Below are positions 31,610 through 45,652 of a DNA stretch of 64,000 nucleotides, one piece after another. The DNA is taken from contig CAVXTH010000005.1 in assembly GCA_963764625.1 (NCBI GenBank), positions 288,001 to 352,000 on the forward strand, in the 5' to 3' direction. How positions within the stretch are numbered: the stretch's first letter is position 1; every line of letters starts with the position of its first letter. The position numbers and the translations under genes were made by a program. This DNA is from Candidatus Krumholzibacteriota bacterium. Lineage in GTDB: Bacteria; Krumholzibacteriota; Krumholzibacteriia; JAJRXK01. Below the pieces are notes generated by a model, which worked only from the letters and a program-made list of their open reading frames with translations, made no database searches and had not been told where the DNA came from.

Positions 31610-33171
31610 TCAGCGCAAGAGCGGCGAGTCTCCGAAGAACTCCCTCAGTTCCGCCCGCGCCTTCCGATTCACCGCGTCCGACCAGAGATCCACCCGATTG
31701 CGATCGTCACTCAAGATCTGAGCCCCAGGCAACTGCGTTGGATCGAAGCGGTTGGCCCACGCGTGGTTCATCTGCACCACACGCCAGTGTTCGTAGTCGT
31801 CATTGATGAAGTCGAGTGGACGGGGGAGTCTCTCGTCCGGGAGTTGAAACTCGGGATCCATCGCCCCCAGAAGCACGACGTTGCCCAGGGTATTGGGCGG
31901 CTCCTGGGTGGGAAGCGCCCACACCACGGGAAACTGCTGCTTCAAGGTCAGACCGACGGACGCGACCAAAGGATCGTGCCACTCCCGGCATTCCACGTTC
32001 ATGGCCAAAATGCCGTGGGGCTTTAGATGGGCTTTAGCCAGCGCGAAGAACTCCTCGCTCACCAGATGGAAGGGAATCGAGGAGGAGCCGAAGGCATCCA
32101 CCACAATGAGGTCCCACCTCTGCTCGCTCTCGCGCAGAAAGTGGCGGGCATCCTCGATCGCGACCTTCGCGTCCTGCGGACGCAGACCGAAATACTCGCG
32201 CGCGGCGTGCACCACGCTGGGATCGATCTCCACTGCGTCGACTTTCCATCCGGCCTGATGATACGCTTGCACCACCACTCCCCCTCCGAGTCCCAAGACA
32301 AGCATCGCGACCGGGCTCGGGGTGGATGAGCTCGCAGGATTCCAGGACCGGAACGTAGCGATGGTGGCTCTCTCCCATGCCCAGGCCCGCGATGGTGTGC
32401 ACGCCGCCGTCGAGCAGGAGATAGGTGCCGTCCTTGCGATCCAGAACCCGGATCTCCGAGTACGGCGAATCGTGCAGCCACACCAGACCTTCCGGGAGGG
32501 TACGTGCGTGGGTCAAACCGACTCCTCCCCCCAGCGCCGCAAGTAGACAGAGCACGGCGGCGAAGACCCCATCGGCACGAGCGCCGAATTTCCGGGAATG
32601 CCAGAAGGCGAGAGCTGCGGTAAGCAAGAGAACCACCGCGACGAGAATGGTGAGATGAAGTACGCCCAGGTAGGGGATGAGCCAGAAGCCGGTGGCCAGA
32701 GCGGAGAACACGCTGGCGATGGTGGAAACGGCGTACAGATTACCGGCGTCGCGGCCCACGCGTTCGACCGTGCGCGCCTTGAGGCGCAGGGCGTAGGGCG
32801 TGATCATCCCCAGGAGCACCAGGGGGGGCGCGAAGAGCACCAGAGCCGCGCCCCAGGACGGCCGCGCGCAGATCCAATGGGCCCGTGGCTTGCAGCAGAG
32901 GGTGCTTGACCCAGGGAACGACCAGGATCCACAGCCCCGCCAGCGCCAGTAGTCCGGCCACGCGCGCGAGCTTGGGTCCGCGGTCAGCGTAGCGCCCGCC
33001 CAGGGCATAGCCCAGACTGAGCGCGGCCAGGGTGACCGTGATCAGAGCGGACCAGAGGTACAGGGAAACCCCAAAGAACGGCCCCAGAATGCGGGTGCCC
33101 AGGATCTCCAGACAGAGCACGCAGGCACCGGACACCGAGACGAGAAAGTAGAGAAAAGGGATGGAAACCAT
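31610..33171 (-). CDS. Fused membrane/spermidine-synthase-like methyltransferase; frameshifted
   Basis: SGACVLCLEILGTRILGPFFGVSLYLWS; GNLYAVSTIAS; VLGLGGG, VEIDP, IVVDAF. Confidence 0.9.
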
Positions 33172-33245
33172 GCGCCAAGAGCCTCGTTTCTTGGGAAAAA
33201 ATGGCGAATCTCAGACACTCGCGAAACACCAGAGAGTGACTCAGA

Positions 33246-34037
33246 GTGACACGAATGCCCGGTAGCTGGCAATCGCCACTTGAACCCCAGCTGCCGGGAT
33301 GCTCAGATCGCTCCCACTTTCGTCATCTCAACCTTCAGGTCATCGTGGATCTCAGGCGACAACCGCTCTCCCTCATTCTGCTGCTCTTCCTCTTGGGAGG
33401 AGAAACGAGCGCGGCCGCGCACACGCTGGTCACCGGAGTGGAGCTGCGTGACACCACTCCCCCACCCACCTGCTCACCCGCCCTGGCCGCCGCCTTGAGC
33501 CCACGGTGCCTGGTCATTCGCAGCTACGGCGAGGATGTCCTGCGCATTTGGTCTGTGCGTGAACTATCCCTGACGAAGGCACCGTGGAGCGTCGACAAGG
33601 TGGCGTTCGGCGCGATCGCGGCCGGAGCGCTCGTCGGGGTGGTGGAGGTCAGCGCATCCTTTTACGACTACCGCGATCAGCCGGTGAAATTGGGCCTCTA
33701 CACCCTGCGCTACGGCCTGACCTCCGTCGAATCGGTCGGGATCGGGCATGCGCGCTGGCGCGACGCGCTCTTGATGCTCCCTCTGCAAAATGACCAGGAT
33801 CCAACGCACGTCTGGCCGCCGGAGGTTCTGCGGGCCCTCGCGACCGCCGAGGGTGAGAACGCCCTTCCCCGCCGCATGGCCCTGTTTCCCACCCCGGAGG
33901 GTCGAGGACCGGGCAAGGGCGAGCCCCCGAAACTCATCGCCAACGAGCTTCATCAACCCATGCTGAGTTTCTGGATCGGGGATGTGCACTTGAACCTCGT
34001 CGTGGCCGGATCTGTGTTCCTGAGCAACCAGGAATGA
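33246..34037 (+). CDS. Exported hypothetical protein
   Basis: Signal-like segment; DYRDQPVKLGLYTLRYG..RDALL; start possibly GTG 33345. Confidence 0.7.
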   Translation: MTRMPGSWQSPLEPQLPGCSDRSHFRHLNLQVIVDLRRQPLSLILLLFLLGGETSAAAHTLVTGVELRDTTPPPTCSPALAAALSPRCLVIRSYGEDVLRIWSVRELSLTKAPWSVDKVAFGAIAAGALVGVVEVSASFYDYRDQPVKLGLYTLRYGLTSVESVGIGHARWRDALLMLPLQNDQDPTHVWPPEVLRALATAEGENALPRRMALFPTPEGRGPGKGEPPKLIANELHQPMLSFWIGDVHLNLVVAGSVFLSNQE

Positions 34038-34054
34038 GCCCGAATTCGGGCTCA
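34035..34054. repeat. Perfect 20-bp palindrome TGAGCCCGAATTCGGGCTCA
   Basis: Seen directly; overlaps the stop of 33246-34037 and lies upstream of the HTH-TM gene. Confidence 0.8.
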
Positions 34055-34214
34055 AAGGACCGAATTCTCGCGGTTAATCCCCATCTTTCCCTTGTAGTCC
34101 GCCCCTCGACCTTCCACTATACAGCAGACGCTCCCAGCGAAGTTCACAATCGAAGCTCTCCCATATTCATCTGCCGTCGCGGAGGGACCAGCGCGGCGAG
34201 GAAGGTGTGAGCGC

Positions 34215-35841
34215 ATGTCCGGCCCCGCTGGTAGCACAGGGGACAGAGGACCGACTTTTCCCCTCGCCGCAATGAGCCATCTCTGCGAGCTCGTGCGCCG
34301 GTACAACCGGCGCAGCTACGAGCTAGTCCTCGAGTTCGACTGGAGCACCTACCCCCGGCTCCGGCGCCTCGGACTGGACCAACTCGATCCTTCGCAGCCC
34401 GAGATCGTTCGGCGAGAGTGCCGAGCCGCTCTCGAGATTGCAGTCGAGGAGCTCGAAACGCGCCACCCCGCCGCGATCGATGACGTCTCGCCCATTTCTC
34501 TCCTGCGACGCCACGTACTCGACGGCGACACCTGGGACGTGATCCGCGCCCAACGCAAGGAGATGGGCCTGGTTCGCCTTTCCGAGCGCACACTCAAGAA
34601 CCGTCAGCACGAAGCCTATCGACTCATCCTGCGGTGGGCGGAGAGCGAGTCACTCAGTGAGGTTCCCCAGCTAGATCTTCCCTTTCATCGGCGCAAACAA
34701 CAGCTCCGGCGCGCCGCCTACGCCGGCGGAATCATCATCCTGGTCGCCCTTGTTGGGCTGGGGGATGATGCAGGTTCCCCCGCTGCGCGGCACTTCCAAG
34801 ACACCTCTGGTTGGCACATCTCTCAAAGAGCAACTGCAGAGAGTCGACGCGCGGTACATCGGAGTTCCCCTGCGTCTCACGCAATCCGAGCGGGCGGGGA
34901 TTCCTCCCCTCCAGCAACTACTCCCTTCGGCTCGTTTCCCGGCGCTGGGAACACAGTTGGGAATCTTGATGCTGCTCCCGGGGCCGCCGGGTGGCGATCC
35001 CAGAGTTCTGTTGAGCACGAAGAAAGGCGGCTACGGGGGTGGCCGTGTCTGGCTCTGGGATGCAGTGGCCGATTCGTTCGTGTGGAAACTCGAGTGGAAG
35101 CCTCCACGGGATGAGATCTTCACGCACAGTACGCTTGACTCGACGGTGTACGACCAAGCGTGGGGAGTCAGCTCCGTGACTTGGCGCTCGGGGGCGCTCA
35201 ATTTGGGAACGCGCCTGGCCATTTGTTACCAACAGTTCTATAGCCCGTGTTTCTTCCTGATCGTCGATCGAAACAGCGGAGCGCCCTTGGCGCATTACAC
35301 GCATCCCGGGTTCATCTACGGTCCCTACCTCGCCGACCTTTCCGGTGACGGAAAGCCCGAGATCCTCTGCGCGGGCACCGACAACGCGCTCAACCGTCCC
35401 GACCTCACCGTTCTGGAACCCGACATGAAAAACGGCGCGGCCTCGACCTGCATGTGGAACAAAAAAGGGGAAGGCGCGCTGTTCCGGGTCCTCTTGCCCG
35501 CGGTGCGCCCCTTGGAAGAGTCCTTCGAGGATCCACGCCTCGCGGTACGTCCCATCGAGGATCGAAACTGGTCTCCAGGCAGTGGGCTCCTGAATCTGCT
35601 CGTCTGGGGCGGGGATCGGGATCTTGAGCGTGCCTACTTCGCCCATCTCTACCACGGCTGCGAAATCCACCCCGGCCACGGTTTTTCGGTCGGGGACCAC
35701 GCCGAGTACGCCTGGCGGAAGATCGGACTCGACTTCGCGAGTATGGAAGGCGAACTCGAGCAGCAAGTCGAGGTGGTTCGGGGTCCCCACTTCGATGAAA
35801 TCATGGGATCCGTCGTTCCACAGCTCGTGAGCCGGCACTGA
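34215..35841 (+). CDS. HTH (sigma region-4-like)-TM-FG-GAP extracytoplasmic protein; frameshifted near 34760
   Basis: LLRRHVLDGDTWDVI..LSERTLKNRQHEAY; TM GGIIILVALVGL; ADLSGDGKPEILCAG. Confidence 0.65.
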
Positions 35842-36237: not shown

Positions 36238-37380
36238 CTAGCCGTCGGCCGGCCGCCGGAGCATGTACGGGGTTGGAGTGAACGAGTTTTGGGGCGCTGT
36301 CAGACCCACCGCATAGATGTCCCCGTTCTCCGCTTCGGCCAGGCTCTGAAGCCTTACATCGCTGCTCTGCCACTCGATGGTGGTCTCTCCCGTCGAGTAA
36401 TGGTGGACCAATGCGCTGCCGGATTCTCCGCAGGCCAGATAGACGTCTCCGTTCGCGGCCACCAGGATGTCGTTGACCCGGTCGAGAGTTCCCGCCTCCG
36501 GGAGAACAAATTCCAGCCACTCGTCATGCACCGCGTCGTACTGCATCAGGAACGCCACGTAGTCATCTACGGCACCGGCGGAAAAGTCGGTAATGGCTCC
36601 TCCGAGCAGAAGGGCGCCCTGCTGGTTAAAGGCCACCGCCCGGAACTCGCGATTGCCACAGCCTCCGCATCCGAGCCCTTTCCTCAAGATCCACCCCGCG
36701 CCCTCGTCGGTGAGCAGTACGGAGAAGGGAGAATCCTCGTCTCCGTTCGCCCCGTCGTCGAATCCGCACCCGGCCCAGGTGCCGGAGTGCCACGCGAGAT
36801 CGACCAAGCTCTTCTCCTGCGGATCGCCGGGAAGGGGAATCGAAACCGTGGTCCAGCTTCCATCGGCCGTTCCCGAGAGTGCGAAGATGCTCGCCCCTCC
36901 CGGACCCGCTGCGAGGAAAGTGCCGGACTCATCGACGGTGACGGCCTGCAAGCCGCCATTCGTGGCCGGCAGGGCTACGCGCGTCCAGCCGGGACGCTCG
37001 GCCAAGACGAGCGGAGAGCCGGCGCTACTGATGTTTACGCCCACGATGACCCCCTTCCCTGCGCCATCGATGGCGACGGCGAGAAGGAAGTCGTCGGTAT
37101 TGACCGGAAGCGACTGCACGGACCAGTCCGCGCCATTGGACTCGAGCACGTAGTCAGGCTTGGCGCCGCTCGCTCCGGTCGAGCCCAAAGCGAGACCACG
37201 GGAGCCCTTGAAGGCGATGCTCGTCAGACCGCTCGAGGGGAGGGTATCGGGAAGCGAGACCTCGACCCACGGGCTCGATGCGGGCGGAGGACCGGTCGGC
37301 CCGTCGGAGCAGGCCACGGGTAGCATCGAGGCGAACAGGACGGCGAGCAGAAGCAGAGGGCGGGCGGAATCTAGGCGCAT
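36238..37380 (-). CDS. Beta-propeller-like lipoprotein
   Basis: Lipobox PVAC; repeated L..VA.D..G....G..W blades; GGAGG RBS. Confidence 0.75.
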   Translation of the reverse strand: MRLDSARPLLLLAVLFASMLPVACSDGPTGPPPASSPWVEVSLPDTLPSSGLTSIAFKGSRGLALGSTGASGAKPDYVLESNGADWSVQSLPVNTDDFLLAVAIDGAGKGVIVGVNISSAGSPLVLAERPGWTRVALPATNGGLQAVTVDESGTFLAAGPGGASIFALSGTADGSWTTVSIPLPGDPQEKSLVDLAWHSGTWAGCGFDDGANGDEDSPFSVLLTDEGAGWILRKGLGCGGCGNREFRAVAFNQQGALLLGGAITDFSAGAVDDYVAFLMQYDAVHDEWLEFVLPEAGTLDRVNDILVAANGDVYLACGESGSALVHHYSTGETTIEWQSSDVRLQSLAEAENGDIYAVGLTAPQNSFTPTPYMLRRPADG

Positions 37381-37576: not shown

Positions 37577-38707
37577 ATGTCATTTGCCCGCCGCGTTTTC
37601 AAACCGTCCCCTCTGCCACTGATATTCGTTTTCACTTTGCTGCAGTTCGGCTGCGGTGATGATTCCACCGGACCGGTGGACGTCACTTCGCCGCAGCCCA
37701 TATCCGAATTCTGGCAAGGCACCTACGAGAGTGCCGACCACAGTCAGGACGGCGCGTTTCTGCTTGACCTCGTGCGCACGGGCAGCGCGGTGAAAGGTCA
37801 GATCATGCTGCGCGATCGTGGGACGTCCGATACCCAGCGTCACCTCTTTCTGAGCGGCACGAGTGAAGGCGACAGTCTGCTACTGGGTTTGGACTACGAT
37901 TCCCATAGCTATCAGTTCACGTTCAACTTCGTGGGTGAGGTAGCAGGTGATTCGACGTCCTTTACGGGAAACCTCAGCCTACCCATTGCCGGACTCGCAG
38001 CTTCGGTTCAAGCGGAGAAGCAAGTTCTCGGTGAGCTCGCGGTCGATTCGAGCGAAGAGATCGACCACGACATCCACGGGCTCGCGGTCGCGGGAGACCA
38101 TCTGTGGATGAGTACGTTGGGTAGCTCGTACCTGGGAATGACATTTGCGGGTGTAGTCGATGACACGATCTCGGTACTTCTAGAAAATTACGCGCTGTGG
38201 ACGAGCGTTGGTCTCGCCACCAACGGCACCTCGTTCTGGGGAACCTGCCCGGTCACGGTGAGCGATGGGACGGATGTACACAACGTGGCCGACCTCATCG
38301 AGTTCGGATACGACGGCATGATCAACCAAAGGGTTCGGGTTCCCATGCGCGTGCCGGGACTGGCGTACGAGGGCAGCGCACTGTGGACGCTCGGACCGGA
38401 CAGCGAGGCTCTGTATCGTCTCGATGGATCGGGCAGCGTGGTCGAGACGGTTCCGATTTCCGTTCCCGACCTCATCTATCTCGAGTACGACGGAGAGTAC
38501 TTCTGGAGCGTGGGTTGGTTCCTGACGAATCTCTACCAGATCGATCGCACGGGAAAGACGGTGGCCGTGTATCACCTGCCAGACGAAGTGCTCGGGCCGT
38601 TCCCCGGCGGACTCGCGTTCGACGGAAGTAAGTTCTGGTACAGCGCGTCGCTGTCGTATCTGCGCGTGCCGGGGAGTTTGCTGTCGAGTTTTCATGTGGT
38701 GGAGTGA
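37577..38707 (+). CDS. Lipoprotein with C-terminal beta-propeller
   Basis: Lipobox QFGC; repeats GLAVAGDHLW, GLATNGTSFW, GLAYEGSALW, GLAFDGSKFW. Confidence 0.8.
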   Translation: MSFARRVFKPSPLPLIFVFTLLQFGCGDDSTGPVDVTSPQPISEFWQGTYESADHSQDGAFLLDLVRTGSAVKGQIMLRDRGTSDTQRHLFLSGTSEGDSLLLGLDYDSHSYQFTFNFVGEVAGDSTSFTGNLSLPIAGLAASVQAEKQVLGELAVDSSEEIDHDIHGLAVAGDHLWMSTLGSSYLGMTFAGVVDDTISVLLENYALWTSVGLATNGTSFWGTCPVTVSDGTDVHNVADLIEFGYDGMINQRVRVPMRVPGLAYEGSALWTLGPDSEALYRLDGSGSVVETVPISVPDLIYLEYDGEYFWSVGWFLTNLYQIDRTGKTVAVYHLPDEVLGPFPGGLAFDGSKFWYSASLSYLRVPGSLLSSFHVVE

Positions 38708-38846
38708 AGTCACTCGGTGATGATCTAGCTTTGATTCGGCGTGAAGGACCTCTCACGCGAGATGTGAAACCACAAAAACGGACCTTCAGCTCCGCAGATT
38801 GGTTCGTCTACTAGAGTAACTGCATTGCTGCGATTGGCTGCCTTCC

Positions 38847-38876
38847 TTGACATGAGCGTGCCAGATAGTGTGTAAT
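38847..38876 (+). promoter_or_regulatory. Putative sigma70 promoter TTGACA-N18-TGTAAT
   Basis: Perfect -35, about 150 nt upstream of small ORF 39023. Confidence 0.5.
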
Positions 38877-39022
38877 CGTCGTTGACACAACTCGGCCCCG
38901 GCTCGCTCCCGACCGAGACCCCTCCCGAAAGGCCATTCACTGGCCATATGGACCAGCTGGCACGCGACGGACGTCGGTTGCGGTGTTTGGCATTCTATCA
39001 GTATGAGGTCTAGGAGGCACCG

Positions 39023-39199
39023 ATGAGTACTTCCCGCTTACCGGTGAAGATGACTTTTCGCAGCTACTGGTTCCGCACCCTCGTGAGTTCTCTTCTCCTT
39101 AGCAGCGCGTTTCTATGCACGATTCCGTCCGTAACCCAGGCGAAGATTATCTATAGCAACGATCGTCTCCAAGGAGACGTGGAGGCTAAGCTCGGGTAG
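39023..39199 (+). CDS. Small secreted peptide/protein (58 aa as read; ~130 aa to 39418/39422 if frameshift-corrected), absent from the ORF track
   Basis: AGGAGG RBS at 39012-39017; MSTSRLPVKMTFRSYWFRTLVSSLLLSSAFLCTIPSVTQA|KIIYSNDRLQGDVEAKLG*. Confidence 0.75.
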   Translation: MSTSRLPVKMTFRSYWFRTLVSSLLLSSAFLCTIPSVTQAKIIYSNDRLQGDVEAKLG

Positions 39200-39418
39200 T
39201 TCGAGCGGCGACCCGGGTGGCGGCGAGCTACTGGTTGGAAGCACAGATACATCTTCTCCGCCTATTGTGGTTCAGACTGCGTATCCAGACGCCACGTGTT
39301 TAATCAACGACAAGCAAATCCTCGCCAGCACGATACAGCGAGCCCAGACTCGCGTTGGTTTCTCCATTTCTTACGCGAGCTGTCTCGTCTGGTCCACATT
39401 CATGGATGGGGGCGCTAG

Positions 39419-41857
39419 ATGAATTCTGATCTTGAGCGCGCCGTCATGCAGCTGGATGAGACTTCACGTGCGCTCCGTTCCAGACTCGAAGACTCTGCGC
39501 GCGGAACCTCGTTGAACGAGGTCGCTTCTCTCGTCGTACCGCTCACTACGGCCGGCCGCTTCAGCGATGCCATCGACTATGCAGAGCGGGCGTTTCGTGA
39601 GTGGGATAGACTTGAGCCGGGCCTTCGTAACGACATGGCGGTGCACTACGCCCTTGCACTGCATGTCACCGGGAATCGGAGAAAGCTGACCCGGTTCATG
39701 GCCGGTCCAGCAAGGAGCTTGAGCGTAGAAGCTCAAGCACGTATTCAGATCAAGTCGGCCTGGTCGGAACTTATGGGAGGTGATGATCGCAAGTCAGGTG
39801 TCACCGCGAGTTCCGCTCGACAGATCTGTGACCCGGAGGACTCTCAGCTCGTTCTGGCAGAGCTCATGTACCTGGAGGGCTATAGGTCGTTTTCGCGCGC
39901 TGGGGACCTTCATGCAGGCCGAGGAGAAGATCGATCTGGCCTGTGGTCTGTTCCGCCTCCACTCAGAGCAACTGCTACTCGCCCACGCACTTCAAGCTCG
40001 GGCAGAGATCCACTGGGGACTTGGGAATGCCGGATACGCGGAGTCACTCGCGACCAGCTCCTTGCGGCTTGCGGGATTGTTGGGCAACTATCGGACCGCG
40101 ACGGCGGCCCTCCGTCAGCACAGCATCTTCTGCTATCATCAGGCTAAGTTTGCTAAGAGCGCGAGCTCTCTTGACGCAGGCTCTCGGGTTCCACGCCCGA
40201 TTCGAGTGCAACGTAACCCCGTTCAGGTTGAAGACAGAAATAGCCCTCGCTAGACTCGAGTTACTGCTCGGAAATTCTACATCCGCGTCCGAGACCCTCG
40301 AGGAGGTCCGAGAACACGTTCCGAAGATGGATGCCATAGCCGCCGCCATGTGGCACGAATACCAGGGTATTGCCAAGGCGCAGCAGCTCGACTACATCGC
40401 CGCACTCGCGTCCTTCGAGGAATCCAAGAAGTGCCTCGCAGCTTCCGGAACCACGACTTACGAACTCGCCGAGGTGTACTGGCAAGAGGCCGAGGTTCAC
40501 CTCGCCATGCACAATCCACGGATTGCGCTGGACCTCGCCAACGATGCGCTCGAAGTCGTCGCACGAATGCGGAAACCGCCGTGAGTACGGGCAGATACTC
40601 CGCGTCAAGGCTACTGCCCTTGCCCAGCTCGCGCGCCCACAGGAAGCAATTCCTCTCTTGGAGGAAGCCGCCGTGGAATTGCGTGGTCGCAACAATCCGC
40701 TTGAGCTGGGCCGTACCCTGACGCAACTAGCGGGAGTTCTCGATCCTGAGTCCGCGGTCGAGAAGGCCAACGAGGCCCTCGCTATTTTCACTCGCCTACA
40801 ACTCTCCACTTTCGCAAACGAAGCCCGCCAAGCTCGCGATCTGGCCAGACTCCGCTTACAGGCCTTCCAAAGCGCGGAGGAGAAAAAGCACACAGTGTGC
40901 AAGGAAGGACAACTCGTTGCAGTGTCGCCCCGCATGAAAGAGGTACTCGCTGATTGCAACTTCATTGCCAGCTCTATCTCTCCCGCCGTCATCATGGGAG
41001 CTACTGGCGTGGGCAAAGAAGTGGTTGCTCGCTACATCCATGAACATAGCGAGTTTTCCAAAGGTCCTCTCGTGGCTGTGAACTGTGCCGCACTTCCGGA
41101 ATCTCTCTTCGAGCGCGAACTCTTCGGACATAAGAAGGGGGCCTTTACAGGGGCCGATCGCGATACCGCTGGTGTGGTCGCCGCCGCCTCAGGGGGAACC
41201 CTCTTCCTCGATGAAATCGGGGAACTCCCCATGGCGATGCAGGCCAAGCTGCTGCGTCTCTTACAGGAGAGCACGTACCGGCGGGTCGGGGATGTTACGG
41301 AGTACCACGCGGACATTCGGGTTTTGGCCGCTACGAATTGCGACCTCAGGAAACAAGTCGACGATAAGATCTTCCGCGAAGATCTCTGGTACCGGATCAA
41401 TGCCTTCGAGGTGCGAATTCCGCTGCTTCGCGAACGCCCCGAGGACATCGCGCCGTTGACCGATCTCTTTCTCGAGGAACAATCGAAGAAATTCGGGATC
41501 GAGTTCTGGATGGATCAACAGGTGCGTCGCCTCTTCGAACGCTACCCATGGCCAGGCAACGTGCGCGAGCTTCAATCGGCTGTGCGTGCCGGTGCCGCCC
41601 GCGCTCGAGGCGATGGTCGAATTCGGGTGCGGCACCTTCCCCACTCCCTGCGCGAGTCAAGGACCAAGAAGCCGACTCCGATCCTCTCGCTTCAACAGCA
41701 TCTCGAGGTCGAGGAACGCCGCATCATTCTGCACGCCCTGCGTCAGTGCAAAAACTCGCGCTCGCAAGCCGCTCGGTACTTGGGGATCGGGCGCAACACG
41801 CTCTACGAGAAGATGCAACGTCTGGGAATCGCGCTCGACAAGGAAGCCAAGGGCTAG
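39419..41857 (+). CDS. TPR-repeat sigma54-dependent enhancer-binding protein; frameshifts near 39892, 40151 and 40561
   Basis: ~480 aa helical TPR-like region; GATGVGKE, ELFGHKKGAFTGA, LFLDEIGE, WPGNVREL; Fis-type HTH AARYLGIGRNTLYEKM. Confidence 0.92.
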
Positions 41858-41917
41858 GTCGCGCGGATATACTCGACCGTATCGGAGACTTTTATCGCCG
41901 GCTATAATCGACCATAC

Positions 41918-42542
41918 CTACTTCGTCTCCACCATCGCCTTTGCTTCCGCTAAGCTCATCTGCTTGTTGTAGAGTCTATCGTCGGTCTCGCTCAGGCCGC
42001 GCGCCTTGGCAAGATTCCCCAGGAACAACGGCCCGAATCCCAGTTCCTCGATGAGCTGCCGGGCAACCGATTCCGCCTTCTTGTCGGTAGCGACGAACGG
42101 AAGTACCCGCCGTTCTTCGAGCGGCTTGCTCGTGATCACCCTCATCGCGAAGGTGTTCCCAGAAGATTGTGTTGAAGACCTTGGCGAGATGCGTCGCGGG
42201 AAGCAGGCGGTGCAGGTACTCACTTTGGGTGAGTCCTTTGAGGTCGATGGCGCCGTCGCGCGAGGGATAATAATTAGACGCGGTCAGCAGCACTTTGCCC
42301 TCGAGCTCTTCGCGGGGCAGCTCGCTGAGCTTGCCGAAGGGAACCGCCTCGATGACGATCTCTCCCTTTCGCGCAGCTTGCTGCGCCGTGGCGGCCGAAA
42401 CTTTGGGTCCCAGTTTCGCGACCAGTTCACGGAGAGTCTCCGGACCCCGCGAGTTGGCGATGACCACCTCGTGGCCACTCTTGACCAAGAGACTCGCAAG
42501 CGTTCCCCCGATATGGCCCGCTCCGATGATTCCGATCTTCAT
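41918..42542 (-). CDS. NADPH-dependent F420 reductase-like oxidoreductase; frameshifted near 42135
   Basis: MKIGIIGAGHIG, NSRGPETL, SNYYP.RDG, KVFNTI, LIEELGF. Confidence 0.88.
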
Positions 42543-42864
42543 GGCCCACTCTCCCTTTGAGGCTCTTTTGTTCATCTCCTTCAGGGTAAAGCGGAAACTG
42601 GGGTTCCTCCACTCTATCGCATCCGCAGCGCCATCTGATCGCCATTACCTCCCACCGCGAGCACGTCCGGGGGGGCAGAGCCCCAGATTCCCGTAGTCTG
42701 AGCGGTCACTCCGGTCGACATTTGCGTCCACTCCGTCCCGTCATACTTCATGCACTTCGGAGCCAACCCACCAGGAGCGGGCGATCCACCTCGCGACGGT
42801 CTCTATCCGCAGGGAGGCCCAGGCCCCGATTCCCGGGAGCGCGGGCTGTTCGGCAGGCAGCGCT

Positions 42865-42921
42865 CAATTTTAATTATATTAAGTTTAACTTGATTTTATG
42901 TATTTTCATAGCTATTATACT
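42865..42921 (+). promoter_or_regulatory. AT-rich promoter/operator with TTGATT-N17-TATTAT
   Basis: ~55 nt nearly pure A/T tract in GC-rich DNA, with repeated TTAA; -35 at 42890-42895, -10 at 42913-42918. Confidence 0.7.
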
Positions 42922-42940
42922 CTGCAAAGGGAAGGTGCTC

Positions 42941-43294
42941 ATGGATATCTCAAAGGCCCGCTGCGCGGAATGCGACCGCCCCATGGAAGTCTCGCGGATG
43001 GTCTGTCCCCGGTGTGAGGTGCGCCTGGAGGGGGATTTCGAGATCCCGGCCCTGGCCCGCCTGTCGATCGAGGATCAGGCATTCGTCGTGGCGTTCCTGC
43101 GGCACCACGGCTCCATCAAAAAGATGGAGAGCCTGTTCGGGATCAGTTATCCCACGGTGAAGAACCGCCTCAACGCGATCGCCCGCCAACTCGACGAGAG
43201 CTTCAACGTCCCCACCCCCAACGAGCTCGTTCTCGACCAACTGGCCCGGGGAGAGATCACCGTCGAGGAAGCACTCGAGAGACTGAACCCCTGA
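42941..43294 (+). CDS. DUF2089 family Zn-ribbon/HTH protein
   Basis: CAEC..CPRC, GSIKKME..GISYPTVKNRL, C-terminal GEITVEEAL. Confidence 0.92.
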   Translation: MDISKARCAECDRPMEVSRMVCPRCEVRLEGDFEIPALARLSIEDQAFVVAFLRHHGSIKKMESLFGISYPTVKNRLNAIARQLDESFNVPTPNELVLDQLARGEITVEEALERLNP

Positions 43295-43334
43295 TCCTGT
43301 GCCCAAGATCCGATCCCAAGGAGGAGAGAAGACC

Positions 43335-43742
43335 ATGTCCCGTGAACGAGCGAAGATTCTCCAGATGGTCGCCGACGGCACCATCACTCCCGAGGAAGCG
43401 GAGAAGCTCCTGAGTCGGCTGGAGGCTCCCGGATCCAGGGTGGCCCTCGAAGCAAGCGAAACGACGTCACGCAAGAGCAAGGCCGGAGCCCTGAAGTGGC
43501 TACGCGTGGTGGTCGATGGCAAGGACAAGGTCAATGTCCGCGTCCCCATCGGGCTCATCCGGACCGGCATCAAGCTGACGACCTTGATGCCGCCAAGTGC
43601 GAGCGAGCACCTCACCGAGCATGGGATCGATCTGTCGCAGTTGAAGAATCTCGACGGCGAGGAACTGATGGACGCATTGCGTGAGCTCACCGTCGACGTC
43701 GACTCCAAGAACGGTGACACGGTTCACGTGTTCTGCGAGTAA
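43335..43742 (+). CDS. SHOCT-like domain protein (DUF2089 partner)
   Basis: ERAKILQMVADGTITPEEAEKLL; KWLRVVV..VNVRVP. Confidence 0.85.
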   Translation: MSRERAKILQMVADGTITPEEAEKLLSRLEAPGSRVALEASETTSRKSKAGALKWLRVVVDGKDKVNVRVPIGLIRTGIKLTTLMPPSASEHLTEHGIDLSQLKNLDGEELMDALRELTVDVDSKNGDTVHVFCE

Positions 43743-43797
43743 CGCACGTCAGCATGAACATTTGGAATGGACTTCTTGTGAAAAGCTGGAGACACGT

Positions 43798-45652
43798 GTG
43801 ACCTCATCACCCCAACGCATTCCTTTGGAGGATTTCTTCCGTAAACCCGAACGTGCCGGCCTCGAGCTCTCCCCTTCGGGACGCTACCTCGCGTTTCTCG
43901 CACCCTACGAGCGGCGCCTGAACGTCTGGGTACGCGATCTCGAAACGGGCAAGGAACTCCGCGTGACCGACGCCACCGAGCGCGACATCGCCGGCTACCT
44001 GTGGGCGAACGATGATCGTCTGATCTACGTGCAAGATCGCGGAGGCGACGAAAACTACCGACTCTACGGCGTTGGACGCGACGGCTCCGATCCTCTCGAC
44101 CTCACCCCGTATGAGGGCGTCCAGTGCTCGATCGTCGACGAGCTAGAGGAGATCGACGACGAGATCCTCTTCATGATGAATCGAAGGACCCCGGAGGTCT
44201 TCGACGTCTATCGGCTGAACGTCACGACCGGGGAGACGACCATCGTCGCCGAGAATCCGGGTAACGTGCAGGGCTGGCTCACCGACCACGCCGGCCGGCT
44301 GCGCCTCGCCACGACGACCGACGGCGTGAACACCAGCATTCTGTACCGCGAAACCGAAGTCTCCCCGTGGCATTCGATTGCAACCTACGATTTCAAGGAG
44401 TTGGCTATCCCGCTGTGCTTCACCTTCGATGACCGAGCACTCTACGTTGCGTCGAACGTCGGCCGGGATCGCATCGCAATCTTCGAGTACGACCTCGAGA
44501 GCGGCCGCGAAGGCCGATTGATCTTCGAGCATCCGGAGGTCGACGTGTCGTCCCTGCTGTACTCCAAGCACCGGCGCATGATTACCGGCGTGCTCTACCA
44601 CACCTCCAAGCCTGCGCATCAGTTTTTCGAAGTGCGTGATGCCGAGATTCAGCGCTTCCTCGACGAGCGGCTTTCCGGACGTTTCAATCGCATCGTGTCA
44701 CACTCCAAAGACGAGTCTCGCTACGTAGTGCACTCCAGCAGCGACCGCTCGCTCGGCGATTATCATCTGCTCGAGTCACCCGAGGGCGGGGCCCTCGCGA
44801 TGCGCAAGTTGTTCGACGCTTCGCCCTGGCTGAACGAAAGCGAAATGGCTGCGCTCGAGCCGATCGAGTATCAATCGCGCGACGGCCTGAAGATCTACGG
44901 CTACCTCACCCGCCCGCTGGGGACAGCCGGCTCTGCGGTTCCGATGGTCGTCCTCCCCCACGGAGGCCCCTGGCACCGTGATTCCTGGCGTTTCGAACCT
45001 GAGGTCCAGTTCCTCGCGAACCGCGGCCACGCCGTACTGCAGGTCAATTTTCGCAGCTCGACGGGCTACGGCCGGAAGTTCAAGGAGGCCGGGTACGGGC
45101 AGTGGGGTCTGACGATGCAGGACGATCTGACGGACGGGGTGGCATCTGGGCGGTGAAGCAGCGGCATCGCCGATCCGCGACCGGGTTGCGATCTTCGGTG
45201 GAAGCTATGGCGGATACGCCGCTCTCTCCGGGTTGACCAAGACCCCCGAGCTGTACGCCTGCGGAGTGAGCTACTGTGGCGTCTCGAACCTCTTCACCTG
45301 GATCGCCGCAATCCCGGCTTACTGGAAGCCACTTCTGGGGATGATCTACGAAATGATCGGACACCCCGAGCGCGATGCGGAGCGGCTACGGGAGACTTCT
45401 CCTTTGTTCCACGTCGATCGAATCCGCGCGCCTCTTCTCGTGGCCCAAGGGGCCAACGATCCGCGCGTTCGCAAGGAGGAATCGGACCAGATGGTTACAG
45501 CGGTGCGTGGCCGAGGCGTCGAGGTGGAGTACATCGTCAAGGACGATGAAGGACACGGTTTCCACAATGAGGAGAACGTGTTCGACTTCTATCGTGTGCT
45601 GGAGCGCTTTCTCGAACGTCATCTCGGACCAGTGTCCGAAGGCGGTGCCTAA
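43798..45652 (+). CDS. S9 family peptidase (dipeptidyl/acylaminoacyl peptidase); frameshifted near 45145
   Basis: [33 protein letters not shown]. Confidence 0.93.

Follow-up and report, generated by a model that had tools for sequence, protein, structure and literature searches.

What does a small gene with a predicted export signal do when it lies directly ahead of a sigma-54 activator whose input domain is built of tetratricopeptide repeats (TPRs)? The question is raised by a stretch of 64,000 nucleotides (64 kb) from Candidatus Krumholzibacteriota bacterium (GenBank assembly GCA_963764625.1, contig CAVXTH010000005.1, positions 288,001 to 352,000 of the forward strand), hereafter the window, in which such a pair occupies 39023-41857 of the plus strand. 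The original prediction had read it as a peptide-signalling system in which a short secreted peptide is sensed by the TPR domain. As far as comparative sequence analysis allows us to judge, the locus is a robust two-gene regulatory module, previously undescribed, whose mode of action is left to inference. A literature search for TPR sigma-54 activators paired with small secreted proteins returned no paper, and one on Krumholzibacteriota gave titles on metabolism and ecology only.

Conservation of the pairing

The TPR domain of the orthologue in G003, one of three same-genus comparison genomes (G002, G003 and G004), served as the query against 201 genomes of the class, of which 39 matched. Upstream open reading frames (ORFs) were collected by a script that required the same strand, a length of 60-260 amino acids (aa), an end lying from -90 to +150 nt of the activator start, and the passing of a crude signal-peptide rule, a heuristic written for this analysis (a basic n-region followed by 12 uncharged hydrophobic residues and a small-x-small site). 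We found a same-strand upstream signal-peptide ORF of 98-153 aa at 22 of 24 TPR-type activator loci by script, a count that became 24/26 when L026 and L027, missed by the Walker-A pattern, were added by inspection. The two loci lacking such an ORF are L041 and L043. Three loci were dropped from the count, L044 at a contig edge and L047 and L054 with no AAA+ domain in the locus; the latter two also show an upstream signal-peptide ORF. As a control we took 20 loci of ordinary, short-N-terminus activators, 16 of them scorable, and the sole positive (L070) was another long-N-terminus activator, leaving 0/15.

The reverse search gave the same picture, with all nine strong matches to the small-protein profile (E <= 1e-25; 201 genomes searched) adjoining a TPR activator, in 8 genomes of the family. 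The recurrence that the original prediction had proposed as a check, a small signal-peptide gene beside genes for TPR, Sigma54_activat and HTH_8 proteins, is thus borne out in both directions. Furthermore, the pairing holds across subfamilies whose TPR domains are less than 30% identical while the other neighbours change, and two genomes (G022 and G007) each carry two different small-gene/activator pairs. In a further genome, G006, two signal-peptide genes of the family stand in tandem before a TPR activator (L016, 6167-6481 and 6596-6952). Co-diversification, the second check that had been proposed, was also observed, as the divergence of the small protein follows that of the TPR domain (partial r of TPR and small protein given AAA+ = 0.345, reached by 0 of 999 permutations) rather than that of the AAA+ domain (partial r of AAA+ and small protein given TPR = 0.07).

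Extents of the two genes

As printed, the small ORF begins with the ATG at 39023 and runs over 58 codons to 39199, with a Shine-Dalgarno AGGAGG at 39012-39017, 5 nt ahead of the start and kept in G002 and G003. It had been described as an ORF missed by the gene track; the ORF is there, and its 58-aa product is already present in a public protein collection (P0009), so that at least one gene caller has called it. A basic n-region, a hydrophobic h-region and TQA before K are present as originally noted and the same in the orthologues, and the heuristic rule predicts a signal peptide of 40 residues (39023-39142) ending in VTQA before K.

The end of this ORF is a different matter. A three-way DNA alignment with G002 and G003 reveals six single inserted bases in the window that neither relative has, near 39187, 39296, 39338, 39909, 40154 and 40561, three within the small gene and three within the activator gene. 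The first, placed at about 39187-39190 by G002 and G003 and by the contigs of runs X1, X2 and X3 introduced below, creates the stop at 39197-39199, and the 58-aa length is therefore artefactual, as is the 18-aa KIIY...KLG peptide that was to be released. After the insertion the reading passes to the second frame, SSGSSSGDPGGGELLVG..., and then back to the first for ...SRWFLHFLRELSRLVHIHGWGR, ending at the TAG at 39416-39418. Frame translations across the three inserted bases thus give a true small gene of about 130 codons (39023-39418, plus strand), the counterpart of a 131-aa ORF directly upstream of each intact activator in G002, G003 and G004. The first ~55 residues of these orthologues match the printed ORF; they then go on with ...SSGSSS(S)GDPGGGELL... 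and end in tails such as ...SWWLHLLRELSVLIHLHGMER. The small-protein profile match in the window's own genome is likewise divided between two frames. The second and third inserted bases fall within the middle of the gene at 39262-39369, where MAFFT puts them at about 39296 and 39338, positions that are approximate because this stretch is hypervariable (22% identity between G002 and G003).

The activator follows at 39419-41857 on the plus strand and is cut by the remaining three insertions into four pieces (39419-39907, 39912-40154, 40156-40560 and 40562-41857), which appear in the window as overlapping ORFs in three frames (39419-40147, 39780-40253, 39943-40584 and 40370-41857). The predicted same-strand TPR activator of ~810 aa exists as one intact protein of 811 aa in the three same-genus genomes (83, 83 and 65% identity over the last 423 residues), and the window copy does not read in one frame. 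The TAG of the small gene abuts the ATG of the activator, with 0 nt between them in the window and 0-1 nt in the orthologues, and the two genes are translationally coupled, TAG then ATG.

We compared the region with contigs of four public metagenome runs (X1, X2, X3 and X5), which are 93-99% alike to it over 38850-41900. One base is missing at 39187 in X2 and at 39190 in X1 and X3; a contig of X2 is without one base at 39343; and an X1 contig has 104 letters in place of 106 at 39262-39369, a net loss of 2 bases. Within the activator, two X1 contigs each leave out one base, at 39909 and 39912, and one base is left out at 40158 (X1) and at 40563 (X1, X2 and X5). Upon translating the G002 and G003 ORFs onto the 64 kb, we observed frame changes at 21 places on which both relatives agree, with insertion as the direction in 44 of 49 rows for the G003 ORFs and 27 of 36 rows for the G002 ORFs. 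Frameshift places are found across the window (for example at 850, 15145, 16170, 18306, 21528, 25990, 29075, 29521, 32300, 32836, 34755, 42132, 45167, 48322, 53870 and 54429), and genes are split at a rate of about one single-base insertion per 3 kb. The rpoB gene is intact, from which we take the assembly errors to be patchy.

The six shifts are very probably consensus errors of the assembly and not gene decay. That they are genuine, with both genes pseudogenes in this strain, appears very unlikely, although six shifts in 1.4 kb is denser than the window average of ~1 per 3 kb, rpoB is intact, and the contigs, at 93-99% likeness, may derive from another strain. Each of the six is a single-base insertion, as are most of the ~21 events of the window, where another cluster lies at 32300-34755; the pieces between the shifts are free of stops and 70-74% identical to the TPR domain of the orthologue; and in X3 record 16 and X2 record 11, contigs ~99% alike, there is no extra base. 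The literal version, a 58-aa precursor cut after TQA to give an 18-residue signalling peptide, is hardly credible. It has in its favour that the ORF stands as printed with a ribosome-binding site and that its product is in a public collection; however, among 16 relatives in 1.84 billion representative sequences P0009 is the sole truncated member, the near-full-length ones (108-136 aa) reaching the motif and tail described below, and its stop is made by an inserted base. With orthologues of 131 aa and contigs lacking the extra base, we rejected this candidate. In this assembly, a split gene or a short ORF that seems to have been "missed" is often the product of a single-base insertion, and a comparison with relatives should precede any interpretation.

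The two products and the upstream region

Across the lineage the small proteins measure 98-153 aa; in a set of 24 loci the range is 98-149 aa, with only one (L051, 98 aa) under 100. An A-x-A-type site follows the hydrophobic stretch in every small protein printed from the surveyed loci. A G-D-P-G-G-G motif, read in the second frame at 39207-39224, is the single block that does not vary within the family; the invariant residues of the family alignment (A2) are M1, G63, P65, G67 and G68 only. By a definition set post hoc, after the data had been seen, a short acidic motif occurs in 22/24 proteins. It takes the form GDPxGG in the family to which the window's gene belongs, GEPGEDP in another group and GDADD in the group of the ~1020-aa activators. 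The middle is net acidic in 23/24, and the acidic stretch with the G-D-P-x-G-G motif is probably disordered. The last 18 residues contain at least two aromatics in 20/24, often as WW, and in the window the amphipathic C-terminal tail ...SRWFLHFLRELSRLVHIHGWGR (39341-39415) matches those of G002 and G003.

Selection differs along the pair. Between G002 and G003, the ratio of nonsynonymous to synonymous substitution rates (dN/dS) is 0.25 in the motif region and 0.15 in the tail of the small protein, with the stretch between them saturated (22% identity), and 0.14 in the TPR domain and 0.04 in the AAA+/HTH part of the activator. By these values the small gene is, on codon comparison, a real coding gene whose tail is under purifying selection. 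The synonymous rate (dS) over the signal-peptide codons 1-40 is 0.21, unusually low beside the values of about 0.8-1.5 estimable elsewhere in the small gene and of about 1.0 for the activator, which hints at a nucleotide-level constraint at the 5' end of the small gene.

Searches with the small proteins yielded no Pfam family (six proteins) and no NCBIfam family (five proteins). In the profile search against 1.84 billion representatives, 16 proteins were recovered, of which the exceptions to the near-full-length form are the window's 58-aa product, an N-terminally extended 178-aa ORF, a doubtful 82-aa match and a 1139-aa repetitive protein (P0012), the last matching the motif stretch only and being uninformative. 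A word-based homologue search gave 2 matches, one named "hypothetical protein" and one unnamed. The stored structural model of a family member (P0001) is poorly ordered, with a predicted local distance difference test (pLDDT) of 0.56, and gave no usable structural match.

In the activator, which ranges from about 790 to 1040 aa across subfamilies, a TPR-like N-terminal domain of ~480 residues (39419-40870, approximate boundary) stands in place of the usual receiver, GAF or PAS input. TPR_12 is matched in the window by the third ORF, in the G003 orthologue over four stretches (E 3.1e-10; TPR_MalT, at E 7.7e-5, lies under its cut-off) and in the 1018-aa activator subfamily with E 8.7e-33. The protein is otherwise a standard enhancer-binding protein. 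The Sigma54_activat AAA+ domain with a readable GAFTGA (PF00158, E 1.7e-62) and AAA_lid_14 lie at 40916-41674 (residues 183-348 and 354-435 of the ORF starting at 40370), followed by a Fis-type helix-turn-helix (HTH_8, E 8.4e-14; residues 445-484 of the same ORF) at 41702-41821, both as the original prediction had them, and the genome holds one copy of rpoN (Sigma54_DBD, E 1.3e-64). The statement that no kinase is nearby also stands, with no kinase domain among the 19 neighbouring ORFs scanned. Relatives of the ~1020-aa activators are named only "sigma 54-interacting transcriptional regulator" and come from metagenome-assembled genomes (MAGs) labelled Krumholzibacteria or Latescibacterota.

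Upstream of the small gene, a candidate sigma-70-type promoter is read from the sequence at 38847-38876 (plus strand), with TTGACA at 38847-38852, an 18-nt spacer and TGTAAT at 38871-38876. The TTGACA already singled out in the original prediction is kept in 4/4 genus genomes, three of which have TGTAAT or TCTAAT as their second hexamer. A consensus promoter and terminator scan did not return the TTGACA site, and its terminator-like sites were at chance level. Upon aligning the upstream regions of G000, G002 and G003, we observed two inverted repeats in the leader (38931-38977, plus strand), GGCCA-N5-TGGCC at 38931-38945 and CGAC-GGAC-GTCG at 38966-38977, whose candidate roles are an operator or an RNA hairpin. 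Both repeats are kept across the three congeners, and the loop of the first varies. Nothing in Rfam matched 38600-39500.

Possible modes of action

We put at about an even chance the reading that the TPR input domain has the small protein as its cognate regulatory partner and that occupancy of the domain would decide AAA+ assembly and activation of sigma-54 promoters. The part likeliest to make contact with the TPR domain would be the C-terminal tail. By one route, the small protein would be exported and processed and a tail fragment re-imported, as in the logic of RRNPP and ComRS systems; by another, the activator would capture precursor still awaiting export and so report Sec activity. The genome holds three loci for family-5 peptide-binding proteins, which permit re-import and do not demonstrate it.

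Several observations weigh against this reading. An exported protein and a cytoplasmic TPR domain are in different compartments, and contact between them therefore needs an extra step. The signal peptide itself is a prediction of the crude rule. The tails are non-uniform, being net basic in only 13/24, with a few lacking aromatics. The partial correlation between small protein and TPR domain may be just that of two fast sequences against one slow, and the related genomes are non-independent. A scan with a sigma-54 promoter consensus, allowing up to 2 mismatches, gave 24 matches against 23 by chance, none sensibly near the cassette. Finally, when the TPR-domain profile was compared with PDB sequences, the best Rap match (E 5.4e-6) was no stronger than designed consensus TPRs and kinesin light chain, so that the resemblance to Rap is generic.

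The systems closest in layout are those of the RRNPP group (Rap/Phr, PlcR/PapR, NprR/NprX, AimR/AimP) and ComR/ComS, with which the locus shares the adjacency of a gene for a cytoplasmic TPR regulator and a small gene carrying a Sec signal, several distinct cassettes per genome and a conserved end of the small protein that is C-terminal. Some ComS/XIP pheromones carry a double-tryptophan motif, and several tails here have WW. The differences are as marked: the output here is a sigma-54 AAA+ protein, where those systems have an HTH repressor or activator or a phosphatase; the small gene precedes the regulator gene, to which it is translationally coupled; and the host belongs to a diderm lineage with type-IX-secretion cargo and not to Firmicutes or phages. 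PMC10075063 gives as the RRNPP signature a propeptide of 10-100 aa with a Sec signal, a receptor of 250-500 aa with TPRs, and adjoining genes. Measured by this, the analogy drawn in the original prediction is partial. The signal (22/24 against 0/15, by a provisional rule), the TPRs and the adjacency (0 nt in the window) agree with it, whereas the propeptide, at about 130 aa with the 58-aa form an artefact, and the receptor, at 811 aa, are both too large; two of the five features fall outside because the products measure 98-153 aa and the receptors ~800-1050 aa throughout the lineage.

Other known arrangements share only part of the layout. In PspA-PspF, HrpV-HrpS and NifL-NifA, a separately encoded partner controls an enhancer-binding protein, the partners being cytoplasmic or peripheral and acting on the AAA+ domain. 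The activator here is similar in having no receiver and no kinase nearby and in that a separately encoded protein would control it, but the candidate partner carries a signal peptide and the activator a large TPR input. In FlgM/sigma-28 and IpgC-MxiE, a cytoplasmic regulator is set free or occupied according to the export of a small protein, and the secreted substrate is bound by a TPR module in the case of IpgC; there, however, export is flagellar or type III, not Sec, and sigma-54 is not involved.

A reading that we consider unlikely, if still worth weighing, is that the small gene is a secretion-monitoring leader resembling SecM, VemP or ApdA, in which the N-terminal signal would engage the Sec machinery, the tail would stall the ribosome at or near the stop, the stall or its release by translocation pull would set translation of the activator, and the TPR domain would sense something else. 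The likeness to arrest peptides (SecM, VemP, MifM, ApcA, ApdA, ApdP) consists of an upstream ORF with an export signal, a hydrophilic spacer and a subgroup-specific conserved C-terminus, the regulated gene being the next in the operon, here with TAG abutting ATG. In PMC7897499, monitoring substrates are recognised by five features: they are encoded immediately upstream of sec or yidC, are 80-200 aa long, have an N-terminal topogenic signal, contain 40 or more hydrophilic residues in one stretch and are conserved at the C-terminus in a subgroup-specific way. The small proteins show four of the five, all but the position, with lengths of 98-153 aa, predicted signal peptides, an acidic middle in 23/24 and a tail dN/dS of 0.15. 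The arrest motifs given in PMC7897499 contain W and I, and many tails here are W-rich. The defining feature is nevertheless absent, as the gene downstream encodes a transcription activator and not sec or yidC. There is no RAPP-like motif in the listed tails, the consensus RNA fold at the junction is weak (-8.9 kcal/mol), in itself no argument for or against an arrest, and the invariant G-D-P-x-G-G block lies in the exported body and not in the tail; a mere spacer would need no such motif. Two tandem small genes in G006 also speak against a leader of this kind, which would moreover offer no explanation of why TPR domain and small protein co-vary.

We are also doubtful of a plainer account, in which the product is an ordinary periplasmic or surface protein, merely co-transcribed or autoregulated and never in direct contact with the activator, whose TPR domain would bind another ligand or protein. 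A signal peptide, an acidic disordered body and an amphipathic tail, all of them predicted, are what one might expect of an envelope protein; the ~1020-aa activators have envelope genes as neighbours, for Omp85, for a UPF0164 outer-membrane protein and for a peptidase with Por_Secre_tail that is a cargo of type IX secretion; and the TPR_MalT-like similarity, below its cut-off at E 7.7e-5, allows a non-peptide ligand. On the other hand, the two genes are strict neighbours whichever of them is the query, even between subfamilies with less than 30% TPR-domain identity and with changing other neighbours; they are translationally coupled; and each paralogous activator retains its own type of small protein.

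Surroundings of the locus and significance

Ahead of the cassette lie two divergent lipoprotein-like genes of ~380 aa (36238-37380, minus strand, and 37577-38707, plus strand), with a Cys after a hydrophobic start and no Pfam family; these two may belong to the activator's regulon or not, and G002 has three lipoprotein-like paralogues at the same site. Beyond the activator are an F420-dependent NADP oxidoreductase-like gene (41918-42575, minus strand; PF03807, E 1.3e-21), split into two frames near 42132, a DUF2089 zinc-ribbon/HTH gene followed by a gene for a SHOCT-like-domain protein (42722-43742, plus strand), and an S9 prolyl-oligopeptidase-family gene (43681-45652, plus strand), split near 45167. 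In the ~1020-aa activator subfamily (L081, 764-7317; L080-L093), the surroundings are conserved: downstream are genes for a DUF4384-like protein, for an M6-like peptidase (~1100 aa) that carries FG-GAP and a type-IX sorting domain, and for a UPF0164 outer-membrane protein, and upstream are genes for a response-regulator-type sigma-54 activator and an Omp85 protein. This neighbourhood fits a diderm host and an envelope-related regulon. Inspection of the intergenic regions of this subfamily by eye established no conserved structure. Sequence 93-99% alike to 38850-41900 occurs in several public runs labelled salt marsh metagenome; of the sampled words, a fraction of 0.61 is present in X1 and of 0.54 in X2.

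The most far-reaching version of the cognate-partner reading extends it to the whole lineage (Krumholzibacteriota and MAGs labelled Latescibacterota), with repeatedly duplicated cassettes in which the aromatic tail of an exported pro-protein would be the specific ligand of the TPR sensor on a sigma-54 activator, and in which RRNPP/ComRS-style sensing of cell density or of periplasmic proteolysis would drive envelope genes. We regard this version as speculative and unlikely in its entirety. If it is true that the two proteins cooperate, each subfamily would supply matched cognate and non-cognate pairs, and the pair would be a new type of sigma-54 input, a TPR sensor with a dedicated exported partner. 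It would also give an uncultured diderm phylum its first indication of a logic like that of RRNPP systems or secretion monitors.

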